Shown here: positions 587 to 43,233 of the stretch, piece by piece
How positions within the stretch are numbered: the stretch's first letter is position 1
Layout: each line of letters starts with the position of its first letter
NCBI GenBank assembly: GCA_900316905.1
Contig: ONET01000003.1
Coordinates: forward strand, 12,770 to 76,769
DNA length: 64,000 nt
DNA from: an uncultured Treponema sp.
GTDB taxonomy: Bacteria > Spirochaetota > Spirochaetia > Treponematales > Treponemataceae
Reading direction: 5' to 3'
Made by a program: the position numbers and the translations under genes
Notes under the pieces: model-generated
Told to the model about the DNA's origin: nothing
Seen by the model: the letters and a program-made list of their open reading frames with translations, nothing else
Database searches by the model: none

Positions 587-814
587 ATGACTGCCGTTCC
601 TGCAAAAGACAAAATAGAATTTATGGTTGCTCTTGTAAGCGATTTTGCAAAAAAGTATTCGCTTTCTACCACACAGGCATTCAACTACCTTGACCGCTTT
701 AATGCCATTGCACTTTTGTTGCAGCATTACAAAATTGCGCATACGCTTTCTTTTGCAGAAGTTATTGACGACATTGCATTCTATTGCAGAAATCACGGAG
801 GAGAGCTGCAATGA
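587..814 (+). CDS. DUF3791-family small protein
   Basis: IEFMVALVSDFAKKYSLSTTQAFNYLDRF...HYKIAHTLSFAEVIDDI...RNHGG fits the DUF3791 pattern. Its stop overlaps the hsdR start (ATGA 811-814). Start chosen at ATG 587. Confidence 0.75.
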   Translation: MTAVPAKDKIEFMVALVSDFAKKYSLSTTQAFNYLDRFNAIALLLQHYKIAHTLSFAEVIDDIAFYCRNHGGELQ

Positions 815-3303
815 GCGACATTTTTGAAAAGAAGGAAATGTCTGAAGAAGACATCAAACTGCAATATATTACTCCTGCGTTGACCGCAAAATGGGATGTC
901 AAAAAAATCACAATGGAAACTTCTCCCGTCAATAATTTTACGGACGGAAAAGTGCGCATAAAAGGCAACATACCAAGCCGCGACAAAGGAAAGCGCTGCG
1001 ACTACGTTCTTTGGCACAACAAGGGAACGCCGCTTGCAATCGTAGAGGCAAAGGACAACAACCATTCTTCTTCATTTGGAATGCAACAGGCAATTACTTA
1101 TGGCGTGATGATGAACGTTCCCTTTGTCTACACTTCTAACGGCGACAGTTTTTTTGAGCATGATTTTACGACAGGCCTTGAAAGAGAGTTTCCGCTGGCG
1201 GATTTTCCAACGGCGGAAGAGCTTATGGCAAGATGGAAAAAGGACGCTGTCGAGAAAAACTTTGAGGCGATAGACAAAAAGCGATATTACATAGACGGAA
1301 AATCAGAAGTATACGACGTTCCGCTTTATTTTGAAGAAAAGTTGATGGACACGCCCTTCTATTCCGGAGCTGACTGCTATCCGCCGCGCTACTACCAGCG
1401 CAACGCGGTAAACAGAACGCTGGAAGCGGTTTCAAAAAAACAGGACCGAATTCTTATCGCTATGGCCACTGGAACCGGCAAAACATATACCGCCTTCCAA
1501 ATAGTTTGGCGTTTGATTGAATCTGGAACTAAAAAGAAAGTTCTTTACCTTGCGGACAGAAATAATCTTGTGGACCAATCCATTCAGCAGGACTTTAAGC
1601 CGCTTGAAAAAGTGATTCATAAAATCAACTTTCAAAAAGAGGACAAGTCAAAAATCTCCGCTTATCAGGTTTACTTTGCCCTTTACCAACAGCTGGATTC
1701 CGCGAAGCATCACGGCGAAGAAGACGAAGAAACGGAAGAAGAAATCGAGCTTGAGATTTCAAAATACAAGGAATTCTTTACGCCGGACTTTTTTGACTTG
1801 ATTATTGTAGATGAGTGCCATCGCGGTTCCGCAAAGGCTGACTCACGCTGGCGAAAAATCCTTGACTACTTTAACGGCGCTACCCAAATCGGCATGACCG
1901 CCACTCCAAAAGAAACAAAGTACGTTTCGAATATCGATTACTTTGGAGAGCCAGTTTATTCATACAGTCTTAAACAAGGAATCGAAGACGGCTTCCTTGC
2001 GCCGTTCAAGGTGATTAATGTTCATACAAATATTGATGACGGCTGGCGACCAAAAAAAGGCCAAAGAGACATTGACGGTAACGAAATTGAAGACCGCGAA
2101 TACAATCTTTCTGACTACGATTACAGCATAATCATTCAAGACCGAATTGACGAAGTCGCGGCCGAGATAACAAAATACTTAAAGCAAACGGACAGAATGA
2201 GCAAAACGATTGTCTTCTGTCCTACGGAAGATGCAGCAGACAGAATGCGAGTTGCATTAAACAATTTGAATACAGACATGGTTTTGAAAGACAACCAGGG
2301 AAATGTAAAAGAGCAATATGTAGTCCGCATCACAGGAAGCGATAAATACGGTAAAGACAAACTCGATTACTTTATTTCTGTTGGTGAAAAGTACCCGGTA
2401 ATTGCAACAACTTCAAAACTGCTTTCTACCGGCAGTGACTGTAAAATGGTAAAGCTTATTGTCATTGATGAACTCATAAATTCAATGACTGAGTTTAAGC
2501 AGATTATTGGCCGCGGTACACGACTTAGATATAGTGAGGGTAAAACTCATTTTACTATTATGGACTTCCGAAGAGTAAGCCGTTTGTTTGCCGACCCTGA
2601 ATGGGATGGAGAGATTGAGCAGAGCGATGATTACGATCCAAAAGCTAAGCCAAAAACGCCGCCGCAACCAACAGGCACGGACGACCCCAGCGGCGGTGAC
2701 GGTCCTGATAGTACCGACCATCCAGGCTCAAATCCAAAACCGATTGTCGGTCGGGGCGGCGTAAGAGTGGATGTCCTTCAGCGCCTTGTTTCGATCTACG
2801 ACACAGACGGAAAGCTTTTAAAGCAAGAATCAATCGAAGATTACACAAAAGAGAGCATTCTTGGAACATACCAAACGCTTGAAAATTTCATTCGGACTTG
2901 GAACGGTGAGCAGAAAAAAGAAATCATTCGCAACATGCTCAAAGAAAAAGGCATCGACCTTGAGTTGATTAAAAAAGACCAGAACATGACCGACGTGGAT
3001 GACTTTGACTTTATCTGTCATATTGCTTTTAACCAAAAGCCGCTTACAAGACGTGAGCGGGCGGACAATGTAAAGAAGCGCGATGTGTTTAGCAAATACG
3101 GCAAGGACGCCCGCGATGTCATTGACGCGCTTCTTGACAAGTACGCGGAGCTTGGCATTTACGACATTGAGTCAACAGAGATTCTAAAGCAAAATCCATT
3201 CACAAAATACGGAAAGCCTGCCCGCATTGCCGCTTTGTTTGGCGGAAACGACAAATACCGCCAGGCGATAAGAGAGCTGGAAGCGGAACTTTACGCGGCG
3301 TAA
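811..3303 (+). CDS. hsdR: Type I restriction endonuclease subunit R (EcoAI/EcoEI-like)
   Basis: Nuclease motif DY...IVEAK; helicase motifs MATGTGKT, DECHR, GMTATP, QIIGRGTR; EcoEI-type C-terminus (PLTRRERA). Start ATG 811 after GGAG. Confidence 0.95.
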   Translation: MSDIFEKKEMSEEDIKLQYITPALTAKWDVKKITMETSPVNNFTDGKVRIKGNIPSRDKGKRCDYVLWHNKGTPLAIVEAKDNNHSSSFGMQQAITYGVMMNVPFVYTSNGDSFFEHDFTTGLEREFPLADFPTAEELMARWKKDAVEKNFEAIDKKRYYIDGKSEVYDVPLYFEEKLMDTPFYSGADCYPPRYYQRNAVNRTLEAVSKKQDRILIAMATGTGKTYTAFQIVWRLIESGTKKKVLYLADRNNLVDQSIQQDFKPLEKVIHKINFQKEDKSKISAYQVYFALYQQLDSAKHHGEEDEETEEEIELEISKYKEFFTPDFFDLIIVDECHRGSAKADSRWRKILDYFNGATQIGMTATPKETKYVSNIDYFGEPVYSYSLKQGIEDGFLAPFKVINVHTNIDDGWRPKKGQRDIDGNEIEDREYNLSDYDYSIIIQDRIDEVAAEITKYLKQTDRMSKTIVFCPTEDAADRMRVALNNLNTDMVLKDNQGNVKEQYVVRITGSDKYGKDKLDYFISVGEKYPVIATTSKLLSTGSDCKMVKLIVIDELINSMTEFKQIIGRGTRLRYSEGKTHFTIMDFRRVSRLFADPEWDGEIEQSDDYDPKAKPKTPPQPTGTDDPSGGDGPDSTDHPGSNPKPIVGRGGVRVDVLQRLVSIYDTDGKLLKQESIEDYTKESILGTYQTLENFIRTWNGEQKKEIIRNMLKEKGIDLELIKKDQNMTDVDDFDFICHIAFNQKPLTRRERADNVKKRDVFSKYGKDARDVIDALLDKYAELGIYDIESTEILKQNPFTKYGKPARIAALFGGNDKYRQAIRELEAELYAA

Positions 3304-3327: not shown

Positions 3328-4830
3328 ATGAGCAACTTGAGCAGTTTTGTAAAACGTGTTCGTGATGTAATGCGTAACGATGCCGGAATTAACGGCGACG
3401 CGCAGAGAATTGAGCAACTGGCGTGGATGCTGTTCCTAAAAGTGTATGACGCAAAAGAAGAAGACTGGGAATTTGAAGACGAAAAATACGAGTCAATAAT
3501 CCCAGAAGAACTCCGCTGGCGCAACTGGGCTCACGCAGAAAACCAAGGCGACGGGCTTACCGGCGACAAACTCTTAAACTTTGTGAACAACAAGCTTTTT
3601 CCGACGCTCAAAAATCTTGAAATCTCTCCCGACACGCCAATCCGTCAAAGCATTGTGCGAACGACTTTTGAAGACGCAAACAACTACATGAAGGACGGCG
3701 TGCTTTTGCGCCAGATTGCCAACATTATTGACGAGCTTGATTTTGGAAGCTACGAAGAAACACATGCCTTTGGCGAAATCTACGAAACAATTCTTAAGGA
3801 ACTGCAAAGCGCGGGAAGCGCTGGTGAGTTCTATACACCTCGCGCTGTAACTCAATTTATGGCAAAAATGATTAGGCCACAGATTGGCGAGACAATGGCG
3901 GACTTTGCCTGCGGAACCGGCGGCTTTCTTTCAAGCTGGATAAAAGAGCTTGAAGAAGTGAAAAACGCGAAGGGCAGTGTCACAAACAAAGAGTCGGAAA
4001 AAATCTACAACTCGATTTACGCCGTGGAAAAAAAGCAGTTCCCTTACATGCTTTGCGTTACAAACATGCTTTTGCACGGCTTGGACAGTCCGCGCGTATA
4101 TCATGGGAACTCGCTCATTTACAAACTTTTGGACTACACCCAAAAAGACGCTTTTAACGTAATTCTAATGAACCCGCCTTATGGCGGAAGCGAAAAGGAC
4201 GACATAAAGCAAAACTTTCCCGCGGACTTACGTTCTAGCGAAACAGCCGATTTGTTTATGGCCGTCATTATGTACCGCTTGAAGAAAAATGGCCGCGCCG
4301 CCGTAATCGTTCCTGACGGATTTTTGTTTGGAAACGACAACGCAAAGAACAACCTTAAGAAAAAACTTCTTACGGATTTTAACCTTCATACAATTGTTCG
4401 CTTGCCTGGAAGCGTATTCAGCCCATACACAAGCATTACGACAAACATTCTTTTCTTTAACAACGAAGAGCCGACTGGAAAGACTTGGTTCTACCGTGTA
4501 GATATTCCAAGCGACAGAAAGCACTTTAGCAAAACAAAGCCGATGGAATTAAAGCATTTTGACGACTGCATCGCATGGTGGAACAAGCGCAAAGAAATCA
4601 CGGACAGCGACGGCAATCCAAAAGCAAAATGTTACGCCGCGCAGGAACTTATTGATTCAAATTACAACTTTGATGTCTGCGGTTATCCTCACGAAGAAGA
4701 AGAAATCTTAAGCGTTGCAGAAACAATCCAGAACTACGAAGAAAAGCGGACAAAGCTTAACGCCGACATAGACAATCTTTTGGCGCGGATTACAGAGCTC
4801 CATCAAAAAGCGCAAAAAGGGGAACTGTAA
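3328..4830 (+). CDS. hsdM: Type I R-M N6-adenine methyltransferase subunit M
   Basis: GEFYTPR, motif I DFACGTGGF, motif IV NPPY. Confidence 0.96.
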   Translation: MSNLSSFVKRVRDVMRNDAGINGDAQRIEQLAWMLFLKVYDAKEEDWEFEDEKYESIIPEELRWRNWAHAENQGDGLTGDKLLNFVNNKLFPTLKNLEISPDTPIRQSIVRTTFEDANNYMKDGVLLRQIANIIDELDFGSYEETHAFGEIYETILKELQSAGSAGEFYTPRAVTQFMAKMIRPQIGETMADFACGTGGFLSSWIKELEEVKNAKGSVTNKESEKIYNSIYAVEKKQFPYMLCVTNMLLHGLDSPRVYHGNSLIYKLLDYTQKDAFNVILMNPPYGGSEKDDIKQNFPADLRSSETADLFMAVIMYRLKKNGRAAVIVPDGFLFGNDNAKNNLKKKLLTDFNLHTIVRLPGSVFSPYTSITTNILFFNNEEPTGKTWFYRVDIPSDRKHFSKTKPMELKHFDDCIAWWNKRKEITDSDGNPKAKCYAAQELIDSNYNFDVCGYPHEEEEILSVAETIQNYEEKRTKLNADIDNLLARITELHQKAQKGEL

Positions 4831-4873: not shown

Positions 4874-5068
4874 ATGGATCAGAATGAATTGGATTCAACC
4901 TGCGGCGTTTCGGATGACGATCTTACCAAACGCTTTATTGAAGCCGTGCGAATCGAAAATGAAATAAAGAAAGCAAAGGGAACTCCTATTTCCTGTTACG
5001 ACTCAGCAACAAACTCCGCTTATTTGCTTTATTCAGATGGAACAAAAAAATATGTGCGAGCAAATTAA
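4874..5068 (+). CDS. Small protein, probable partner/antitoxin of the downstream zeta-like ATPase
   Basis: 64 aa with a strong AGGAGG RBS and TGnTATAAT upstream; overlaps the ATPase start. Confidence 0.65.
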   Translation: MDQNELDSTCGVSDDDLTKRFIEAVRIENEIKKAKGTPISCYDSATNSAYLLYSDGTKKYVRAN

Positions 5069-5621
5069 AAAGCCAGAAATTATTGTTTTTGCAGGGCCAA
5101 ACGGAAGCGGAAAGACTACCGTTACAAAACTTGCAAAAGTAATTGAGCCTTATATAAACGCGGATGAAATAAAGCGGACGAACTACTGTTCTGATTTGGA
5201 AGCGGCGCAGCTGGCCGAAAAAATGCGGGAAGAATGTGTGGCTCAGAATAAAAATTTTACTTTTGAAACAGTGCTTTCCACAGACCGCAATCTAAAGCTT
5301 TTGCAAAAGGCGAAAGAAAAGGGCTATTTTATCCGCTGCATTTATGTTCTTACCCGTAACCCTGATATAAATGTTTCGCGCGTGGAATCCCGCGCGGCAA
5401 ACGGTGGACATTCCGTTCCCGAAGATAAAGTCCGCTCTCGTTACGAAAAAGCTCTTGCCCTTATTCCCGAGCTTGTGAAAGTTTGCGATGTCCTTCATAT
5501 TTATGACAATTCCACATTGCCGTTCAGAATATTCAAAAAACGCAAAACAGAATATTTTTATTGGCAGAACGAGGACTGGAGCAAAGAACAAATTCAGCAG
5601 CTTACTGGAATTGAACTATGA
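5052..5621 (+). CDS. Zeta-toxin-like / AAA_33 P-loop ATPase-kinase
   Basis: FAGPNGSGKTT, YINADEI, FETVLS, RV..R...GGHSVPEDKVRSRY, YDNS: the COG4185-type signature. Confidence 0.85.
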   Translation: MCEQIKKPEIIVFAGPNGSGKTTVTKLAKVIEPYINADEIKRTNYCSDLEAAQLAEKMREECVAQNKNFTFETVLSTDRNLKLLQKAKEKGYFIRCIYVLTRNPDINVSRVESRAANGGHSVPEDKVRSRYEKALALIPELVKVCDVLHIYDNSTLPFRIFKKRKTEYFYWQNEDWSKEQIQQLTGIEL

Positions 5622-7147
5622 CCGCTAAAGACTTAAAAAACGCGCTTTTACAAGAAGCCGTGCAAGGCAAGTTAGTTCCTCAGATTGCAAGCGAAGGCAA
5701 TGCAAAAGATTTGCTGGAAGAGATACGGAAAGAAAAAGCAAAACTTGTAAAAGAAGGAAAAATCAAAAAAAACACGACTAAAGCAAGTGCGTCTGGTCGT
5801 GCTCTACCTGAAATTACAGAAGAAGATATTCCGTTTGATATACCTGAGAATTGGTGCTGGTGTAGATTGGGAGAACTTGCTGAAATAATTACTAAAGGTT
5901 CATCACCTTCATGGCAAGGAATCAATTATGTTGATAAAGGCATTTTATTTGTTACAAGTGAAAATGTAGGAGATGAAGAATTATTATTATCAAAGAGAAA
6001 ATTTCTAGAACAAAAATTTAATGAAATTCAACCAAGATCAATATTACAAAAAGGAGACATACTTACAAACATCGTTGGAGCTTCTATCGGACGAACCGCA
6101 ATTTTTGATCTAGATATTAAAAATGCTAATATCAATCAGGCAGTTGCTTTAATTCGATTAAAAAATAAACAGTTAAACTCGTATATTGTAAAAGTTCTAA
6201 ATAGTAAAACCATAATAGACCAAATGAGTGATAATACGGTTAATACAGCTCGTGCTAATATAAGTTTAACTACAGTTGAAAACTTCAAAATTCCTCTCCC
6301 ACCACTAGCCGAACAAAAACGCATAGTTGCCGCAATCGAAAAGTTTATGCCGCTCATAGAAGAATACGGCAAAAAAGAAACAGAACTCAAAGCCCTTAAT
6401 GAACAAATCGGCGCGCTCACAAAAAAAGCAATCCTGCAGGAAGCCGTTCAGGGAAAACTTGTTCCACAGATTGCAGCCGAAGGGAACGCAAAAGATTTAC
6501 TGGAAGAAATAAAGAAAGAAAAAGCAAAACTTATAAAAGAAGGAAAAATCAAAAAAGAAAAGCCTTTACCAGAAATTACAGAAGACGAGATTCCGTTTGA
6601 TATTCCAGAAAACTGGTGCTGGTGTAGATTAGGAGAATTGGCAACACTTGTAACCAAAGGAACAACTCCACGAGGTGGAAATGTTGCGTATTCAAATGAA
6701 GGGATAGGTTTTTTACGTGCTGAAAATGTAGCAGGTATCAAAGATCTTGATTTATCAAATTTAAAGTATATTGATGAAGATACTCATAAAAACTTTTTAA
6801 AACGTTCAATAATTAATGAAAATGATTTATTGATAACAATTGCTGGTACTCTTGGAAGAACTGCAATTGTAAAAAAAGAAAACTTACCTTTAAATGCAAA
6901 TCAGGCTATATCAATTGTAAGATTAGTTAATTATGATTTAATCGATTTAATTTATCTGGTTTTTAGTATTAACTCACCTGAATTACAAAAAAAATTAATT
7001 GGTCAAACAAAAGTTACCGCTATTCCTAATCTTACATTAGAGATAATTGAGAACTGCATAATACCACTTCCGCCACTTGCAGAGCAAAAACGTATTGTCA
7101 CTGCAATCGAAAAAATGCTGTCATTATGCGAAAAACTTGGAGAGTAA
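5618..7147 (+). CDS. hsdS: Type I R-M specificity subunit S with two TRDs
   Basis: Duplicated conserved blocks (LQEAVQGKLVPQ...IPFDIPENWCWCRLGELA and IPLPPLAEQKRIV) flank two variable AT-rich TRDs. Confidence 0.95.
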   Translation: MTAKDLKNALLQEAVQGKLVPQIASEGNAKDLLEEIRKEKAKLVKEGKIKKNTTKASASGRALPEITEEDIPFDIPENWCWCRLGELAEIITKGSSPSWQGINYVDKGILFVTSENVGDEELLLSKRKFLEQKFNEIQPRSILQKGDILTNIVGASIGRTAIFDLDIKNANINQAVALIRLKNKQLNSYIVKVLNSKTIIDQMSDNTVNTARANISLTTVENFKIPLPPLAEQKRIVAAIEKFMPLIEEYGKKETELKALNEQIGALTKKAILQEAVQGKLVPQIAAEGNAKDLLEEIKKEKAKLIKEGKIKKEKPLPEITEDEIPFDIPENWCWCRLGELATLVTKGTTPRGGNVAYSNEGIGFLRAENVAGIKDLDLSNLKYIDEDTHKNFLKRSIINENDLLITIAGTLGRTAIVKKENLPLNANQAISIVRLVNYDLIDLIYLVFSINSPELQKKLIGQTKVTAIPNLTLEIIENCIIPLPPLAEQKRIVTAIEKMLSLCEKLGE

Positions 7148-7150
7148 ATT

Positions 7151-10100
7151 ATGGAATTATTTAGTAATGAACCAATATGTTTTGTCGTGATGGGATATGG
7201 AAGAAAATTTGACTATAGACATAAACGATATATTAATCTGGATGAAACATATAAAAGAATAATTGAACCTGCTGTAAAACGTGCTGGCTTTAAATGTATC
7301 CGTTGTGATTCAGATAAACATTCAGGCATTATAGATCTGAAAATGTATCAATATTTAAAGAACTCTGAATTTGTGATTGCCGATATTTCTACATTAAATC
7401 CAAATGCATTATATGAATTAGGAATACGTCATGGAATAAAACCTTATTCTACAATTCTAATGATGGAGAATAAAGGAAAAAAAGATTTACCTTTTGATCT
7501 TAGTCATGTATCAACATTTCCTTATGAACATAATGGAGAAACGATTGATGATGAAGAAGTGGATAATAAAACTGAAGAATTATATCAATTAATCATTGAA
7601 GTTCGTGAGAAACAGGAAATCGATAGTCCATACTTTACATTTATGGGTATTGAACCATGTGATAGTATAAAACAAATTTCTACTTCCTTGCACACTTTAA
7701 GCTTTGTTACTAATACAACTAATGAAAAATATGTAGTCTTATCTTTATTAGGAAGATGGAATGATAAAAATGAAAATGATAAAAAATTACTTGAAAAAAT
7801 AATTGGTAATAATTCTTTTAATTCTCTCGAATTAATTTCATATGCAAAAGAACAATCATCCTTTTTACATTTAGATGGAATTCATTGGAAATTTAACCAT
7901 AAAAAAGAAATAATAGATTTATTCAATAAATACAAAACCCCAAGTTTATTTGAAGATTTTAAGGAAGTCGCTATTGAGGTTTTATCAGAACTTGATCCGA
8001 AATACGAACTTGAAAAAGATAAGAGATTCATGGCTGCTATTACTGGATATAGTTGTAAGTATTCAAAAGATTTACGTTTTGGAATTTCAGAGACTTTAGT
8101 TTGGTTATCCATTAATAATGAATCACTTCTTGGTGAACAAAATAAATATCTTGTTTCAAATATTGTTTTTGAAATATTAAATACTCCTGATTGGCATTTG
8201 TGGGCAAGTCTAAACGAATTATTGCCAACACTTGCAGAAGCTTCTCCAGAGTCATTTTTGAAAGCTTTACAAGAGCAAATATCAAAACATTCAGAAGTTA
8301 TTGTTGAATTATTTAACCAAGAAGGTGATGGAATAATAAGTGGAAGTTTGATGACAGGTATCTTATGGAGTCTTGAAACAATTGCATGGTTTCCAAATAA
8401 CTTTCAGATGGTTGCAATTATTCTTGCAGAATTGGCTAGACTTGATATAGGTGGAACTTATACAAATCGACCAATCAATTCATTAAAGACTATGTTATTG
8501 CCTTGGATAAATACTACTACAGCATCGACAGAGGATAAAATGAAGGCTGTTCAGTATTTATTTGAAAATTATTCAGATATTGCCTGGAAAATTATTTTTT
8601 CATTATTACCATCAATGAATTCTACATCCTTTGGTTGTAGTGAACCAAAATATCGAAAATCATTATTGGAAAATTTTAAAAGGGATGTTTCAAGGTCTGA
8701 TTATGTGACGCAAATAACAGAATACTCAAATTATGCTATAGAATTAATGAAAAAAGATTTTAATCGTATATTTGTTGTTCTAGAAAATTTAAATGCTATT
8801 AATCCAGAATCTTATAGTTCTCTTTTTAAATATTTGGAAAACTATGATTTTGAAAGAATTACAGATGAAGATAAATTTACATTATGGGAAAAGTTGAACG
8901 ATTTAATAAAAAAGCATAAAAGATTTGCAAACTCTAAGTGGGCTTATAAAGAAGATATTATCGGAAATATCGAAAAGTTTGCAAAAAAAATACAACCAAC
9001 AGATAAAAGACTTTTATATCGTGCTTTGTTTACTTTACCGGATTACGAGTTATCTGATGAAGTATATGATGAACATAAAACTACAAATTGGGAAGCAGTT
9101 AGAAAAAATGCAACTGAAAAGCGTGAAACTGCATTTAATGAAATATTAAATGAATATGGATTAGAAACTCTTCCAGAATTTATTGTAAATGAGAGAATGG
9201 CTATTTCTGTAGCTACAATTTTAGGAAATAAAAAAAATGAAGAAATAGATTCATTTCTTATTCCGAAATACTTAAATTCAGAAAATGAATATATGAATTT
9301 ATTATGTTCGTCATATATAAGAGGTTCAAGTTATATTAGAGAAAAAGATTGGTTTTCTCATTTAAAAATTAATTCTTATGAGAATATATTAAAAACACAA
9401 TTCTTAATAAACTTGAAATTTGAATCAACAACCTGGGATCTAGCAAGAGAAATACTAGGTGAAGATTATGGTTTATATTGGGAAAATGTTAATCAAAATG
9501 TACTTGCATGTGAATCTGATTTAACAACAGCTATTAAGGAATTTAACAAAGTTAGCAGATTTGATGAAGCAACAGAATGTATACATAGTTCTATTTTCAA
9601 CAAACACTATATTGAACCAGAATTAATTATAGAAACTCTTTCTAATGTTTTACGTAATTCTCCAAGTGAAAAAACGGAAACATATAAATTAATAGAAATA
9701 ATTAAATATCTAGAAAACTCAACAACTGATAAAGAATCTCTCTGGAAAATTGAATGGGGATTTTATGGTCTTTTTATCTTTGATAATAAAAATGTACCAA
9801 ATACATTATATCAAAAGTTAGCAACTGCTCCTGAGTTATATGTAACATTTTTGAAACTTGGTTTTAAGGAAGATAATGACAAAAGAAAAAAAGAACTTTC
9901 CGAAAAAGAACAGGCATTAGCACAGTGCTCATGGAACCTATTAAATAATTTCCATTTATTACCAGGACTTGATACAAATGGATTGTTGGATTCTTCTGTA
10001 TTAATAGACTGGATTAATGAAGTATTAAAACTTGCACAAGAAGTAAACAGAATAGCATCTGCAAAATTATTTATTGGACACTTATTATATCATTCTCCTG

Positions 10101-10402
10101 CTGATAAGGATGGCTTTTGGATAGATAAGTCTGTCGCCAATATTCTCAATGATTTTAAGAATGGAGATATGCTTAGAGGCTACAAAAATGAAGATATTAA
10201 TTCTAGAGGAGCTCACGTAGTAGATACAACCGGTGCACAAGAAAATGCAATAGGAGATTTATGGAGAAAACGTGCAGAAGAATTAAGAAATGAAAATTAT
10301 CCATTTTTTGCAAGTGAAGCTGATTCTATTGCAAAATTTTATTATGATTCTGCAAAACAAAGTCAAAATATGGCTATACCGCCAGAAAGAGAATTAAACT
10401 AA
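7151..10402 (+). CDS. 1083-aa putative defence protein: N-terminal nucleoside 2-deoxyribosyltransferase/DRHyd (DUF4071-like) domain plus large alpha-helical C-terminal region
   Basis: N-terminus CFVVMGYG...YKRIIEPAV...CIRCD...VIADISTLNPNALYELGIRH...LPFD, with the Glu in YELG retained. The remaining ~900 aa look helical/repeat-like and have no clear Walker A. Very AT-rich. Confidence 0.7.
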   Translation: MELFSNEPICFVVMGYGRKFDYRHKRYINLDETYKRIIEPAVKRAGFKCIRCDSDKHSGIIDLKMYQYLKNSEFVIADISTLNPNALYELGIRHGIKPYSTILMMENKGKKDLPFDLSHVSTFPYEHNGETIDDEEVDNKTEELYQLIIEVREKQEIDSPYFTFMGIEPCDSIKQISTSLHTLSFVTNTTNEKYVVLSLLGRWNDKNENDKKLLEKIIGNNSFNSLELISYAKEQSSFLHLDGIHWKFNHKKEIIDLFNKYKTPSLFEDFKEVAIEVLSELDPKYELEKDKRFMAAITGYSCKYSKDLRFGISETLVWLSINNESLLGEQNKYLVSNIVFEILNTPDWHLWASLNELLPTLAEASPESFLKALQEQISKHSEVIVELFNQEGDGIISGSLMTGILWSLETIAWFPNNFQMVAIILAELARLDIGGTYTNRPINSLKTMLLPWINTTTASTEDKMKAVQYLFENYSDIAWKIIFSLLPSMNSTSFGCSEPKYRKSLLENFKRDVSRSDYVTQITEYSNYAIELMKKDFNRIFVVLENLNAINPESYSSLFKYLENYDFERITDEDKFTLWEKLNDLIKKHKRFANSKWAYKEDIIGNIEKFAKKIQPTDKRLLYRALFTLPDYELSDEVYDEHKTTNWEAVRKNATEKRETAFNEILNEYGLETLPEFIVNERMAISVATILGNKKNEEIDSFLIPKYLNSENEYMNLLCSSYIRGSSYIREKDWFSHLKINSYENILKTQFLINLKFESTTWDLAREILGEDYGLYWENVNQNVLACESDLTTAIKEFNKVSRFDEATECIHSSIFNKHYIEPELIIETLSNVLRNSPSEKTETYKLIEIIKYLENSTTDKESLWKIEWGFYGLFIFDNKNVPNTLYQKLATAPELYVTFLKLGFKEDNDKRKKELSEKEQALAQCSWNLLNNFHLLPGLDTNGLLDSSVLIDWINEVLKLAQEVNRIASAKLFIGHLLYHSPADKDGFWIDKSVANILNDFKNGDMLRGYKNEDINSRGAHVVDTTGAQENAIGDLWRKRAEELRNENYPFFASEADSIAKFYYDSAKQSQNMAIPPERELN

Positions 10403-10445
10403 TCCCGTTTTTCTAAAGAAAAAATCATTACACAAGGAGTTACAT

Positions 10446-10901
10446 ATGTGTAAAACAAATATTGAACCTACAGTTGAAAAAAAGTTACCCAGAGAAAACT
10501 TAATCAGTCAATGGAAATATAATAGTAAAAGAAGTAAACGTTATAAGAAATTATATTACTGGTTTGAAATTCCTAGTATTATATTAGGCGCAATGATTCC
10601 TGTAATTGTCATGATTAAAGATATTCCTTCTATTATTCCAGCAATTATCTCAGGTATTGTTGGTTGCTTAAAGACAATTTCTTTTTTTGGATGCTTTAAG
10701 AATTACTGGATATCATCACGGAATATTGCAGAGCAATTAAAGTCAGAATTAAGACAGTATGATGCCAAAATAAATGAATATGATGTAGAAGATGAAAAAT
10801 CAAGAAATAAAGCTCTAGCGAAAAAACTTGAAGCAATTATTCGTGATGGTAATAAAGATTGGATCACTTTAATTGAAAAAAATGAGGAAGATAAAAAATG
10901 A
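10446..10901 (+). CDS. SLATT-domain (DUF4231-like) two-TM protein
   Basis: Basic N-terminus, two hydrophobic helices (IPSIILGAMIPVIV; IIPAIISGIVGCL), then W...R..AEQLKSE..Y typical of DUF4231/SLATT. Confidence 0.8.
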   Translation: MCKTNIEPTVEKKLPRENLISQWKYNSKRSKRYKKLYYWFEIPSIILGAMIPVIVMIKDIPSIIPAIISGIVGCLKTISFFGCFKNYWISSRNIAEQLKSELRQYDAKINEYDVEDEKSRNKALAKKLEAIIRDGNKDWITLIEKNEEDKK

Positions 10902-11386
10902 GAGTATTTATATCACATAAAAGTGAAGATGCTGAATTAGCAAAACACTATGCAGAAGAGTTAAGTGAATTAAGTTTTGATTATTATCTTGATGAATATG
11001 ATATTCATATTAAAAATTCTTCTGATAGAGGAACTTTAATAAATAAAGAAATAAAAAAATCTACAGATTTATTAGTAATTGTTACTGAAAATACAAAAAA
11101 ATCTTGGTGGGTTCCTTTTGAAATAGGTTTATCTACAGCAGCTAATAATAGAATAGTAACTATCGTGCATGACGGTGCGCCTGAATTACCTTCATTTTTA
11201 AGAAAATGGCCTGTTATAGATACAGATGAAAAATACCAAACATATCTTTCTGAATTAGAAATAAATAATAGAAAATTGATAGTTGAAAGTAAACAGTTTT
11301 CAAAATCTATGGAAAGCATTTTTAAGTCTAATAACAGTGCGGACATTTTCCATAGCAATTTAATTAACAAATTTAGTAGATTGTAA
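10898..11386 (+). CDS. Stand-alone TIR-domain protein
   Basis: RVFISHKSED, YYLD, IKKSTDLLVIVT, SWWVPFEIG with the catalytic Glu. ATGA-coupled to the SLATT gene. Confidence 0.88.
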   Translation: MRVFISHKSEDAELAKHYAEELSELSFDYYLDEYDIHIKNSSDRGTLINKEIKKSTDLLVIVTENTKKSWWVPFEIGLSTAANNRIVTIVHDGAPELPSFLRKWPVIDTDEKYQTYLSELEINNRKLIVESKQFSKSMESIFKSNNSADIFHSNLINKFSRL

Positions 11387-12288
11387 TGGATCAAAAATTC
11401 CTAAAACGCCTTATTTCAGAATGTCCTCTTACAGATTTTTCACAAAACGGAAACGTTACTGAAAGAGAATTACAGCTTGATAAATATTTAGAGCAATTCA
11501 CAAACTTCCTTTATTCAAATGAGAATCAGCTTATTCAACATTTCTGGCAGGAATATATTGCATCTTCAGAAATTGGATTACTCCAGAATTCAAAAATGCT
11601 CAGAAGGTGTTTTATTTATTTGGATTGCGCGGTCGCAGTTTACAACTACATCGCCAAAAAGAGTAAAGAAAAGAAAAATACAGAATTAGCTAAACACATT
11701 TCAATTCAACTGCAAAATGATTTGAATCAATTTAAAAGCATGCTGCTTCTTGCGATGAACGGCTGTCTTAATAGCTTGATTATGGTGTATCGTTCATTGT
11801 ATGAAAGTTTTGTAATCGGGCAATACCTGGTTCAGAATCCAGATTTGGTTCCAATTTATAGCGAACATGCTGATTTTTTAAAATACCATCTTACGAAAGT
11901 TGTAGGAAACAGCAAGCCAGAATGGGATAAAAAATATAATGAATATATTGAAAAATATGGCGAAGAATTTATAGAGGATTACGGTTGGACAAAAAGCAAG
12001 CTTCCAAATAAAAAAGACAGGAAATTAGTCACAATTGTAAAAGCGTGTAAACTAGAGGAAGAGTTTTCAAAATTATATAAATTTTCTTGCAGTTATGTTC
12101 ATTCCTCCGCTTTTTCTGTTTCTAGCAGACCGGATTTAAACCAAATGAAGGTTTTCTTTAACGCGTCTATGCATATCATCGAATCGGAAGTAACAGATTA
12201 TATTCGGGAATTAAATATTCCAACAAAAGAAGGCGTAATACTGCGGAATATTTTGATATTCTTGTGGCAGGATTTTGAAAAAATATAA
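11386..12288 (+). CDS. DUF5677-like / HEPN-like protein
   Basis: YRSLYE...YL and LYKFSCSYVHS motifs. TAATG-coupled to the TIR gene. Confidence 0.6.
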   Translation: MDQKFLKRLISECPLTDFSQNGNVTERELQLDKYLEQFTNFLYSNENQLIQHFWQEYIASSEIGLLQNSKMLRRCFIYLDCAVAVYNYIAKKSKEKKNTELAKHISIQLQNDLNQFKSMLLLAMNGCLNSLIMVYRSLYESFVIGQYLVQNPDLVPIYSEHADFLKYHLTKVVGNSKPEWDKKYNEYIEKYGEEFIEDYGWTKSKLPNKKDRKLVTIVKACKLEEEFSKLYKFSCSYVHSSAFSVSSRPDLNQMKVFFNASMHIIESEVTDYIRELNIPTKEGVILRNILIFLWQDFEKI

Positions 12289-40365: not shown

Positions 40366-43233
40366 TTAGTGGAACTGGCCCCAGTTGGAGCCGCTTTCTA
40401 TCGACACGCGCAGGGGAATCGAAAGCTGGACCGCGCCTTCCATTTTTTGGCGGAGGAGCGCGATTGTCTGCTCGATGACTTCCGGCTTGTCGGGACATTC
40501 CAAAATCAATTCGTCGTGGACTTGAAGCACGATGTCGGCGGCGCTGCCTTGAACGGGCGTGTTGACCGCGACGCGCTCGGCGGCGGCTTTTTCCACCTTG
40601 TTCTTGCTGTTGATGTTCATCACGCGGCGGCGGCGGCCCATGATTGTTTGGACATGGCCGCTTTCTTCCGCGCCTTTAATCGTGTCGTTGATAAAGGCGT
40701 TGATGGCGGAATATTGCTTAAAGTAATTTTCGATAAAGCTTTGCGCCTGCGTTCGCGGGATTCCAAGCTGCGCGGCCAGCCTAAAGGCGCTCATTCCGTA
40801 GATTACGCCAAAGTTGATTGTCTTTGCCGTCCGCCGCATTTCGGGCGTGACTTGGTCGGCGGGAACTCCGTAAATGAGCGAGGCCGTGGCCTTGTGAACG
40901 TCGTCGCCGTTGATGAAGGCCGCGCGCATGTTTTGGTCGCCCGAAAGGTGCGCCAAGACCACAAGCTCGATTTGCGAATAGTCGGCGCTTATCAACACTG
41001 TTCCCGGAACGGCTGTAAAGGCCGAGCGGATTTTGCGGCCCGCTTCGTTGCGGACCGGAATGTTTTGCAAGTTGGGGTCGCGGCTAGAAAGGCGGCCAGT
41101 CGCCGTTCCTGTTTGCATGAAGGATGTGTGGACGCGGCCTTGCTTGTCGGCCAGTTTTGGAAGGGCCTCGACATAGGTTGACTGCAGCTTTGAAAGCTCG
41201 CGGAATTTTAGTATTTTTGCCGGAACGGGGTCCAGCTCGGCAAGCTCTTCCAAAACGCTTGTGTCGGTTGAGTAGCCGGTCTTGGTTTTCTTTCCGTGCG
41301 GAAGGCCGCGCTCGGTGAACAAAACTTCCTGCAATTGCTTGGGCGAGGCGATGTTGAACTCGTGGCCGACTTGCTCGTAGATTTCTTTTTCGGCGGAGGA
41401 AATTTCTTTTTGCAAATCCTTGTTGTAGGAATCAAGCGCCGCCGAGTCCAAGTGGATTCCGGCCAATTCCATTTCGCCAAGAATTTTTATGAGCGGCATT
41501 TCGATTGTTTCAAAAAGTTCCAGCAAATTTTTATGCTTTAACTCGTCATAAAAAATTTTGTAAAGCTGGAAGGTAAAGTCCGCGTCTTCGGCGGCGTAAG
41601 GAACTGCCTTTTCAAGCGGAACGTCGCGGAATGTTTGTCCCTTGCCAACCAAGTCCTTGAACTCGATTCCGACAAGCGCGAGCTTTGTTTGGCCCAGCGT
41701 TTCAAGCGAGTAGGGCGAATGTCCGATTTTGTCCGGGTCCAAAAGCCAGGCAGCGATCATCGTGTCAAAAATTTTTGCCCTGCAATCTTCTTCGCGCAGG
41801 CCCGCCGTCCGCAAAACTTCGTAGTCAAACTTTGCGTTGTGCAGAACAAGCGTCCAATCCGCCGCCTTGAACAAGCGCGAGATTTGCTCCACCGCGTCTT
41901 GTTGGCTTACGCCGTCGCTAGAAAAAAGCGAGTCGCCTTGCGAGGCCACGGGAATGTAAAAGCCCGCGCCGTTTTTGTTTGAAAGGCTAAAGCCCACAAG
42001 CTGGGCCTCGGTTGTTTTTAAGGAATCGGTTTCGGTGTCCAGGGCGACGATTTTTTGCGGCGAGGAAAGGATGCCGTCCACCAATTTTTTTAGCTCGTCC
42101 GCGCTTGTGACGGCCTTGTAGTCGCCTTGGTTTTTGCGCAGGGGAAGAGGCGCGGGCACATCTTGGTTTTGCGAACCATAATCGGAAACTGACCCAGAAG
42201 CGGCGGAAGCGCCGGATTGGCCAGAAGCGTTGGACGAGGCGGAAACGCTTTCTTTACCAGAAACGCCGCCGCCTTGGCCGGCCGCGCCTTCCTGGCCAAA
42301 AAGTCCGTCCGCGCCATTTGCGTCGTCCAAAACTTTTTCGCCAGCCTCAACCGCCAGCGCGGCGAATTGCTTGGCCGGCTGAAAGGCCTGGTAGGCCTTT
42401 AACTTTTGGGCGGCGGCGGCGTAGTGGAATTCTGTCTTCGCGACGTTTTCCAATTCCTTGCCGGGAACCGTGTCGCAAAGGGTGATCAGTTTTTTGGAAA
42501 AGAAGGCGCTGTCTTTTCCGTCGCGAATCTTTTGTCCGATCGCGCCTTTTATTTCGTCCGCGTGTTCGTAGATGCCTTCGAGAGAGCCGTATTGGTCCAA
42601 AAATTTGCAGGCGGTTTTTACGCCTACGCCTTTTACGCCGGGAACGTTGTCAGCGGTGTCGCCGTAAAGCGAAAGCAAGTCCAAAAGCAGCTTGGGCTCC
42701 ACGCCCCACTCGGCCTTCACTCCTTCCGCTCCCACGACTTTCCAAACGTCGGCGTGGTCGGGCTTAAGGATTTGGACGCGCTCGCCGACCAATTGCATCA
42801 AGTCCTTGTCGCCCGAAAGTATGCGGACGCTTTTTCCTTGCTCCACCGCTTTGCGCGTGACGGTGGCGATGACGTCGTCGGCTTCGTAGCCTTCAACCCG
42901 CAAGGAAGGAACGCCAAGCGCTTCCAAAGTTTCCTCAATCCACGGAATTTGCGCGTGTAGGTCTTCGGGAGTTTTGGGGCGCGTGGCCTTGTAGTCGGAA
43001 TACATTTCGTGGCGGAAGGTTTTTCCTTTTGAGTCAAGGGCGGCGATCAAGGTCTTGGGCTTGTAATGCTCAATCATCGCGCGCAGGTTCCTAAAAAAGC
43101 CAAAGAGGGCGCTGATGTTGCGCCCGTTGGAATCTGTGAGCGGCCTTGAAATGAACGCGAAGTAGCAGCGGTAAATCAGGCCGTATGAGTCGATTATATA
43201 AATTGTGTCGTCGTTAAAAATTTCGTTTGCCAT
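40366..43233 (-). CDS. polA: DNA polymerase I
   Basis: 5'-3' exonuclease (YEADD, SGDKD, GDTADNVPG), DTET, TGRLSS, DYSQIEL, RRTAKTINFGVIYG, QVHDEL. Confidence 0.97.
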   Translation of the reverse strand: MANEIFNDDTIYIIDSYGLIYRCYFAFISRPLTDSNGRNISALFGFFRNLRAMIEHYKPKTLIAALDSKGKTFRHEMYSDYKATRPKTPEDLHAQIPWIEETLEALGVPSLRVEGYEADDVIATVTRKAVEQGKSVRILSGDKDLMQLVGERVQILKPDHADVWKVVGAEGVKAEWGVEPKLLLDLLSLYGDTADNVPGVKGVGVKTACKFLDQYGSLEGIYEHADEIKGAIGQKIRDGKDSAFFSKKLITLCDTVPGKELENVAKTEFHYAAAAQKLKAYQAFQPAKQFAALAVEAGEKVLDDANGADGLFGQEGAAGQGGGVSGKESVSASSNASGQSGASAASGSVSDYGSQNQDVPAPLPLRKNQGDYKAVTSADELKKLVDGILSSPQKIVALDTETDSLKTTEAQLVGFSLSNKNGAGFYIPVASQGDSLFSSDGVSQQDAVEQISRLFKAADWTLVLHNAKFDYEVLRTAGLREEDCRAKIFDTMIAAWLLDPDKIGHSPYSLETLGQTKLALVGIEFKDLVGKGQTFRDVPLEKAVPYAAEDADFTFQLYKIFYDELKHKNLLELFETIEMPLIKILGEMELAGIHLDSAALDSYNKDLQKEISSAEKEIYEQVGHEFNIASPKQLQEVLFTERGLPHGKKTKTGYSTDTSVLEELAELDPVPAKILKFRELSKLQSTYVEALPKLADKQGRVHTSFMQTGTATGRLSSRDPNLQNIPVRNEAGRKIRSAFTAVPGTVLISADYSQIELVVLAHLSGDQNMRAAFINGDDVHKATASLIYGVPADQVTPEMRRTAKTINFGVIYGMSAFRLAAQLGIPRTQAQSFIENYFKQYSAINAFINDTIKGAEESGHVQTIMGRRRRVMNINSKNKVEKAAAERVAVNTPVQGSAADIVLQVHDELILECPDKPEVIEQTIALLRQKMEGAVQLSIPLRVSIESGSNWGQFH

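Follow-up and report, generated by a model that had tools for sequence, protein, structure and literature searches.

In the 64,000-nucleotide stretch of an uncultured Treponema sp. genome that we analysed (the window; contig ONET01000003.1), we found three genes, placed between the specificity gene hsdS of a type I restriction-modification (R-M) operon and a DUF5677 gene, that are predicted to form an anti-phage cassette: a gene for a 1083-aa protein (the large protein), a SLATT gene and a TIR gene. A preliminary description of this DNA had proposed a candidate anti-phage cassette attached to the type I R-M operon, and that much stands. The large protein appears from its sequence to be a chimera, neither a ThsI effector of Thoeris (it has no TPR-S domain) nor an Avs8 receptor (it has no NTPase). 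Possibly, though as a whole we would lean against it, a ThsI-type effector has been rewired, its TPR swapped for an NTPase-free capsid sensor of Avs8 type, with one operon answering phage by way of a second messenger (SLATT) and also without it, so that it would escape silencing by anti-Thoeris proteins of the sponge or signal-degrading kind; the sensor would come from an unannotated family of more than 6,000 clusters, in which capsid receptors that lack the NTPase, or have a degenerate one, are combined with exchangeable effectors.

The N-terminal domain of the large protein (residues 1-167 modelled alone, confidence score pLDDT 83.1) resembles nucleotide N-glycosidases. The three top Foldseek matches were MilB structures (E 5.7e-4 to 9.6e-4, query TM-score (TMq) 0.53-0.57), followed by DNPH1 and nucleoside deoxyribosyltransferases (NDTs), and a profile of the domain finds DNPH1/Rcl at E 1.4e-4. 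The YELG motif that had been read as NDT-like is indeed intact, with E89 aligning with the YELG of DNPH1/Rcl; the other residues of note are F11, D62, D78, N83, N85 and R93. DNPH1 has a Y24/D80/E104 triad, and F17 of MilB admits ribose (PMC10603095). F11 seems equivalent to this F17 (register set by eye), and because it appears to occupy that position a ribonucleotide substrate is hinted at. The domain shares with MilB (4ohr, 4jem) and DNPH1/Rcl the fold and the YELG glutamate, but differs from them in sequence (13-15% identity), in their biosynthetic or sanitising roles and in a catalytic Asp that is out of register.

The hydrolase domain is 38-54% identical to the N-termini of DRHyd-TPR-S proteins. 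Its nearest relatives are mostly 400-460 aa long; 117 of 136 open reading frames (ORFs) are complete and 380-490 aa long, and TPR-S is carried by all 18 of the DRHyd relatives sampled (400-440 aa). At 117 loci of the DRHyd-TPR-S type, 50 genes adjoin a TIR-cluster gene, 14 a SLATT and 13 both; five of 66 TIR-cluster neighbours were checked in Pfam, all being ThsB_TIR, and there are two TIR_2 neighbours besides. In a quick tree with a midpoint root, the 25 DRHyd domains of the fusions form one clade (SH-aLRT 95) nested among the 117, and they keep all columns that are invariant in the TPR-S group. Type VIII Thoeris is defined as a TIR with a "CMP hydrolase + TPR" protein, type VII as a TIR (ThsB) with a SLATT protein (ThsH); both were verified against phage and both use canonical cyclic ADP-ribose (cADPR) (bioRxiv 10.64898/2025.12.03.692087). 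For type VIII, the hydrolase-TPR protein acted as the effector and cADPR was made by the TIR by itself; the TPR is only a presumed cADPR binder and the hydrolase target a hypothesis (same preprint). The DRHyd-TPR-S proteins fit the type VIII effector ThsI, although the two are equated by description and not by sequence. With ThsI the large protein shares a MilB/CMP-hydrolase-like domain nesting among DRHyd-TPR-S, but in place of TPR-S (~250 aa) it has a module of ~890 aa, unrelated by profile comparison. No Pfam PF20308 match was found in the large protein, and the module as an expanded TPR-S was rejected, the profile comparison giving 0.6%.

In the full AlphaFold2 (AF2) model of the large protein (mean pLDDT 83.9, pTM 0.53), the hydrolase is followed by a loose linker, by a winged-helix-like start, as we interpret the secondary structure in the model, and by a long helical solenoid. 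Only ~25 low-confidence residues lie between hydrolase and module, with no Walker A and no NTPase. Neither Pfam nor NCBIfam gives a meaningful match for the 1083-aa protein, and PADLOC effector models touch its first ~150 residues only; PDB sequence searches gave nothing but noise, Foldseek of the whole model generic HEAT-type solenoids only (TMq <=0.27), and ESM Atlas no named family. In VIA-align the Rossmannoid domain dominates, and MilB, TIR and receiver domains score equally (Z 9-11). Upx was rejected as a counterpart, its nuclease being C-terminal (PMC13601566), a separation made by description and not by sequence.

A named relative of the module emerged from profile comparison. With four genuine PD-lambda-4A proteins as the reference set (772-2488 bits), a 123-sequence module profile found all four of these Avs8A proteins (E 7e-10 to 3e-7), while the top-scoring one among 84 decoys reached 5.6e-3. 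Furthermore, HHalign matched the module to Avs8A at 97.4% (E 1.4e-11) over 631 collinear columns (residues ~197-901 versus 432-1121), whereas the controls (reversed, five column-shuffled, TPR-S) gave <=0.6%. PADLOC matched 4 of 15 further module members to PD-Lambda-4_A weakly (E 9e-5 to 5e-3, one region), the only PADLOC model matching the module among these 15; 23 module members scanned at E 1e-5 gave no module match. PD-lambda-4 is Avs8, which is activated by HK97-fold capsid proteins (10.1101/2025.07.02.662641; PMC13581612), and KpAvs8 has degenerate Walker motifs (PMC13581612). The likeness to Avs8 is a remote collinear homology, far below family-level scores, that takes in the winged-helix-like start (WHD) and most of the TPR-like solenoid. 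Unlike all four Avs8A proteins, which have a Walker A, the window protein is without a STAND NTPase, and the hydrolase replaces the Mrr/Cap4 nuclease. The module may already be inside the Avs8 cluster of PMC13581612. That an Avs sensor can be coupled straight to its effector has a precedent in Dsr1, which uses an Avs7 sensor without NTPase and still detects capsid (PMC13581612); it differs in being a single-gene NADase and, so far as compared (no Dsr match in the module by PADLOC), in belonging to another sensor family. The earlier statement that this architecture cannot be matched to Avs is thus not supported as regards the helical part, and the accompanying proposal that the large protein senses infection is probably right, the module being a predicted sensor. 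Capsid genes of PF09950 type, natural candidate triggers, occur in 5 of 300 other genomes of the genus (L239-L243).

The module belongs to a large family, with 6,663 clusters at E <=0.001 and 3,793 at 1e-30 in the profile search. We placed 239 relatives, 46 with little or no N-terminal extension and 193 with other N-termini, the latter falling into a 110-member group, a 51-member group and small groups. From their motifs we take the two larger groups to be Cap4-like and Mrr-like nucleases. DRHyd was found in none of the 193, and a Walker-A-like string in three, at implausible positions. Fusions of the module to SIR2, TIR, metallophosphoesterase, SMEK and HTH were confirmed with Pfam. Because it is fused directly to so many different effectors, with no DRHyd among the 193, the module shows the pattern expected of a predicted self-sufficient sensor. 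Members are also found standing alone in viral contigs (19 loci), and on plasmids, and an E. coli member is still a "hypothetical protein" in RefSeq. One form, a 1180-aa nuclease-like fusion (WP_096935339.1; L212-L224, L231), stands alone close to tail genes in enterobacterial prophages and is present in 8 of 5,426 complete E. coli genomes. In split forms (L009:30-1828, L149, L219, L272) the effector and an 850-945-aa sensor are adjacent genes.

Next to the large gene, the TIR gene matches Pfam TIR_2 (PF13676; 49 bits, cut-off 28) and PF08937 (24.7 bits), and the PADLOC ThsB models at a best E of 1.3e-12. Its catalytic Glu, E75 in WVPFEIG, is intact as previously described and is invariant in 22 of 22 aligned TIRs. 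Among the 66 TIR neighbours of DRHyd-TPR-S genes, those nearest to the window TIR are 33-37% identical. The SLATT gene matches NCBIfam SLATT_1 (NF033634; 65.4 bits, cut-off 41) and DUF4231 (PF14015; 58.7 bits), and a profile of 14 SLATTs from DRHyd-TPR-S loci scored it at E 1.6e-12. It had been credited with two transmembrane helices; one hydrophobic stretch (~residues 38-84) is long enough for two, but two are not separable. No type VII Thoeris model is among the PADLOC and NCBIfam matches of the window genes, and no ThsA (SIR2-SLOG) or Macro-TM match, the effectors of Thoeris types I/II, was found on the cassette genes with Pfam, NCBIfam and PADLOC. Like type VII Thoeris, the window has a stand-alone TIR with a catalytic Glu adjoining, through an ATGA overlap, a SLATT-domain membrane protein; unlike it, a 1083-aa gene is attached, and the likeness to the tested ThsB/ThsH is judged from the layout. 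The TIR-SLATT pair thus has the checkable features of type VII, and defence by an alarm signal is the likely prediction. Mixed operons, in which ThsH and ThsI occasionally occur together (Fig. 5I legend of bioRxiv 10.64898/2025.12.03.692087), likewise combine a SLATT and a TIR with a hydrolase protein. The claim that the cassette cannot be matched to Thoeris is therefore not supported, TIR plus SLATT being the type VII layout and hydrolase plus TPR the type VIII effector. Distant relatives of the window TIR in the genus (L206-L211) adjoin, by eye, another TIR and genes that look caspase-like or cyclase-like.

Relatives that match the large protein over its full length make up 24 clusters, with identities of 39-98%. 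At two loci (L005, L006) the order hsdS-big-SLATT-TIR-DUF5677 is kept, with 45% identity for the big protein, 45% for SLATT and 87-94% for TIR; a third (L007) reads hsdS-big up to the contig end. In total 23 of 80 big proteins could be paired with a SLATT and/or TIR relative, indirectly, through longest contigs of identical size; all 23 belong to the 70-100% groups or to the P0021 group, and accessions can be near-consecutive (MBR0099349.1, big; MBR0099351.1, TIR). The expected co-occurrence thus holds for this part of the family, but the other big proteins are unpaired and DUF5677 is not a member. Identities are mosaic: three big proteins, 93-98% identical, are paired with a TIR only 51% identical, and because near-identical big genes go with such a TIR, the TIR seems to be kept even when exchanged. 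Recombination is also apparent inside the large gene, where P0002-P0004 are 52-55% identical to the window in the hydrolase and 97% after residue 480. Among species-representative genomes the fusion is rare. Searches of 60 relatives, 400 family genomes and 340 phylum genomes gave no other full-length copy, and a search of 337 genus genomes gave no close TIR; there is overlap between these samples, and many of the genomes in them are incomplete.

The position of the cassette is itself informative. DUF5677, whose Pfam match in the window (54.9 bits) is above the curated cut-off, was matched in 41 of 301 genus genomes, the window's own included, and is full-length at 69-85% identity in 13 others. 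Among 19 regions picked from these matches, DUF5677 lies downstream of an hsdS in 15, with unrelated cargo between; the window's SLATT or TIR is in none of the 15, one of which has a short, distant DRHyd-like gene. A PADLOC scan of 14 cargo proteins out of nine slot regions identified Hachiman HamA/HamB (286/1035 bits), PDC-S53 (1246), PDC-M43A/B (119/117), a PycC-like cyclase (39 bits), a Sir2 protein (115 bits) and weak GajB and PD-T7-4 matches, besides a kinase whose region lacks hsdS; four of the 14 gave no PADLOC match. The interval from hsdS to DUF5677 (7148-11385 in the window; L186-L204) is a swappable defence slot, a defence hotspot in this genus, and because DUF5677 follows hsdS with unrelated defence cargo in relatives, the cargo here comes to three genes. 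DUF5677, kept whatever the cargo, is perhaps a constant accessory of the R-M system, or else itself a defence gene. Candidate new systems, with no or weak family matches, also occupy the slot (L190/L198, 261+723 aa; L193, 502 aa; L202, 298 aa; L192, 281+301 aa).

We hypothesize that the operon has two parallel arms, a proposal that we hold tentatively and at slightly below an even chance. In one arm, proposed by analogy with type VII, infection would lead the TIR to make cADPR, which would open the SLATT membrane protein. In the other, for which the basis is the Avs8 homology and the direct effector fusions of the module, a phage major capsid protein, the ligand being assigned by analogy with Avs8, would be bound by the solenoid of the large protein, which would then switch on its own nucleotide N-glycosidase with no need of the signal. 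The hydrolase would attack a ribonucleotide, and the infected cell would stop growing or die. The presumed ancestor is an operon mixing types VII and VIII (DRHyd-TPR-S, SLATT and TIR), its TPR-S having given way to the solenoid. TIR and NDT-like domain had both been put forward as signal makers; the TIR is retained as the predicted synthase, but the NDT-type hydrolase is the effector in type VIII, and signal-making by it survives as a rival reading.

Several observations weigh against this proposal. The DNPH1 catalytic Asp is opposite M65, not an acid (by eye), and the equation with ThsI is one of description. The three-gene unit is shown for part of the family only: groups P0007-P0020 and P0022-P0024 have no SLATT or TIR match (57 of 80 big proteins), which may reflect shallow SLATT and TIR searches (3 and 50 matches) or real absence. 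The connection to Avs8 is a distant one, with 16% identity and a template of four sequences; a comparison of less depth, a 19-sequence profile against one Avs8A, reached only 0.4%, and PADLOC PD-Lambda-4_A missed 11 of the 15 relatives and the window protein. EcAvs8 and KpAvs8 themselves differ in the capsids detected (13 of 23 capsid rows, PMC13581612), and remote sensors can change ligand. The large protein has no NTPase to account for the activation step. Finally, RNA runs contained short pieces of the locus only, leaving expression unsupported.

The two arms could instead be one chain, with the large protein as an upstream sensor: once a phage protein is bound, DRHyd would make or convert the signal for SLATT, or the TIR would be switched on. 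That the three genes stay together over 45-100% identity speaks for such a chain, as does the statement that DrHyd members can be NADases or ADP-ribosyl cyclases giving cADPR (PMC9503650), and the long branch (1.74) of the window's DRHyd sub-clade could reflect a changed role. We nevertheless consider it unlikely, given the division of labour in type VIII (bioRxiv 10.64898/2025.12.03.692087), the typical toxic effectors that are the other fusion partners of the module, and the independent variation of SLATT, TIR and big identities, which argues for recombination rather than tight partnership. Descent from DRHyd-TPR-S proteins, often beside TIRs, and the retention of a TIR next to the large gene would also suit a protein that is still ThsI-like and depends on the TIR signal, either by itself or combined with a phage protein in an AND gate. 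This seems quite unlikely, as TPR-S, the presumed cADPR binder, is absent and relatives of the module are found as lone prophage genes with no TIR adjoining (by eye).

Next in order, and likewise improbable to us, is that there are two arms but the solenoid senses another phage protein or a host perturbation and not capsid. Here the low identity to Avs8A counts, as do the Avs7 and Avs10-24 sensors, which lie outside the comparison, and the at least 13 different phage proteins detected by Avs families (PMC13581612); on the other hand Avs8 is the only named sensor family matched, over an alignment of considerable span, and the 51 relatives with an N-terminus of ~370 aa also weakly match the nuclease-NTPase region of Avs8 (13%, E 0.002). 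The preliminary description had favoured four genes, with DUF5677 as an HEPN-like RNase effector. DUF5677 overlaps the TIR stop and follows the TIR in L005 and L006. HEPN RNases carry an R-x(4-6)-H motif; a regular-expression search found none in DUF5677. With unrelated cargo ahead of it in most regions and a G+C content nearer to that of hsdS than to that of the cassette, it is better seen as the fixed anchor of the slot, and we regard a four-gene system as very improbable indeed.

The TIR plus SLATT layout, the hydrolase-TPR effector and the mixed VII/VIII operons are already known (bioRxiv 10.64898/2025.12.03.692087). What appears new from the sequence is the replacement of TPR-S by a winged-helix-like and solenoid module without NTPase; our literature search, which left most subscription papers outside, found no title or abstract start describing this fusion. 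If the two-arm proposal is true, one exchange of domains would connect Thoeris second-messenger signalling with direct Avs-type sensing, usually separate logics, and the activity of a ThsI-type hydrolase would become testable through a protein trigger. The analysis also offers a name and a testable ligand for a large family of "hypothetical" proteins of 860-1400 aa in prophages, plasmids and defence slots, and maps a defence hotspot in a little-studied genus.

Features of the locus, in window coordinates
Feature	Position	Strand	Evidence or remark
hsdR (type I R-M)	784-3303		Pfam and PADLOC
hsdM (type I R-M)	3328-4830		Pfam and PADLOC
hsdS, upstream boundary of the variable slot	5618..7147	+	Pfam and PADLOC; position same in relatives
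Large protein, whole ORF (1083 aa)	7151-10402	+	
Large protein, residues 1-165: DRHyd / MilB-DNPH1-type nucleotide N-glycosidase, predicted toxic effector	7151..7645	+	Foldseek, profile, tree
Linker, low confidence, ~residues 155-189	7646..7717	+	pLDDT <50
Large protein, residues ~190-1083: winged-helix-like start and alpha-solenoid, predicted phage-protein (capsid) sensor	7718..10402	+	AF2, HHalign
SLATT_1/DUF4231 small membrane protein, ThsH-like predicted effector (151 aa)	10446..10901	+	NF033634, PF14015
Stand-alone TIR, ThsB-like, E75 at catalytic position, predicted signal synthase (162 aa)	10898..11386	+	PF13676, PF08937, PADLOC ThsB
DUF5677, conserved downstream anchor of the slot, outside the cassette (300 aa)	11386..12288	+	Gene order in relatives

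The four ORFs are co-oriented as first described: the first begins 3 nt beyond the hsdS stop (7147), and the junctions that follow are a gap of 43 nt, an ATGA overlap at 10898 and TAATG at 11384-11388. A promoter and terminator scan of the locus stayed at chance level; positions 7103-11440 were recovered on one contig in a single run of unrecorded kind. The reported AT-richness relative to the host was reproduced (G+C 14/60 at 7801 versus 36/60 at 42661): the cassette genes have 26-28% G+C (large 28.3%, SLATT 28.1%, TIR 26.4%) and DUF5677 32.7%, compared with 49.3% for the genome; hsdS is AT-rich too (33.7%), while hsdR and hsdM have 44-45%. The named close homologues belong to Treponema sp., which suggests a Treponema-like host. 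A zeta-toxin-like gene omitted from the preliminary description lies at 5037-5621, between hsdM and hsdS (Pfam scan), and this gap is a second variable position, holding other small genes in relatives (L186-L195).

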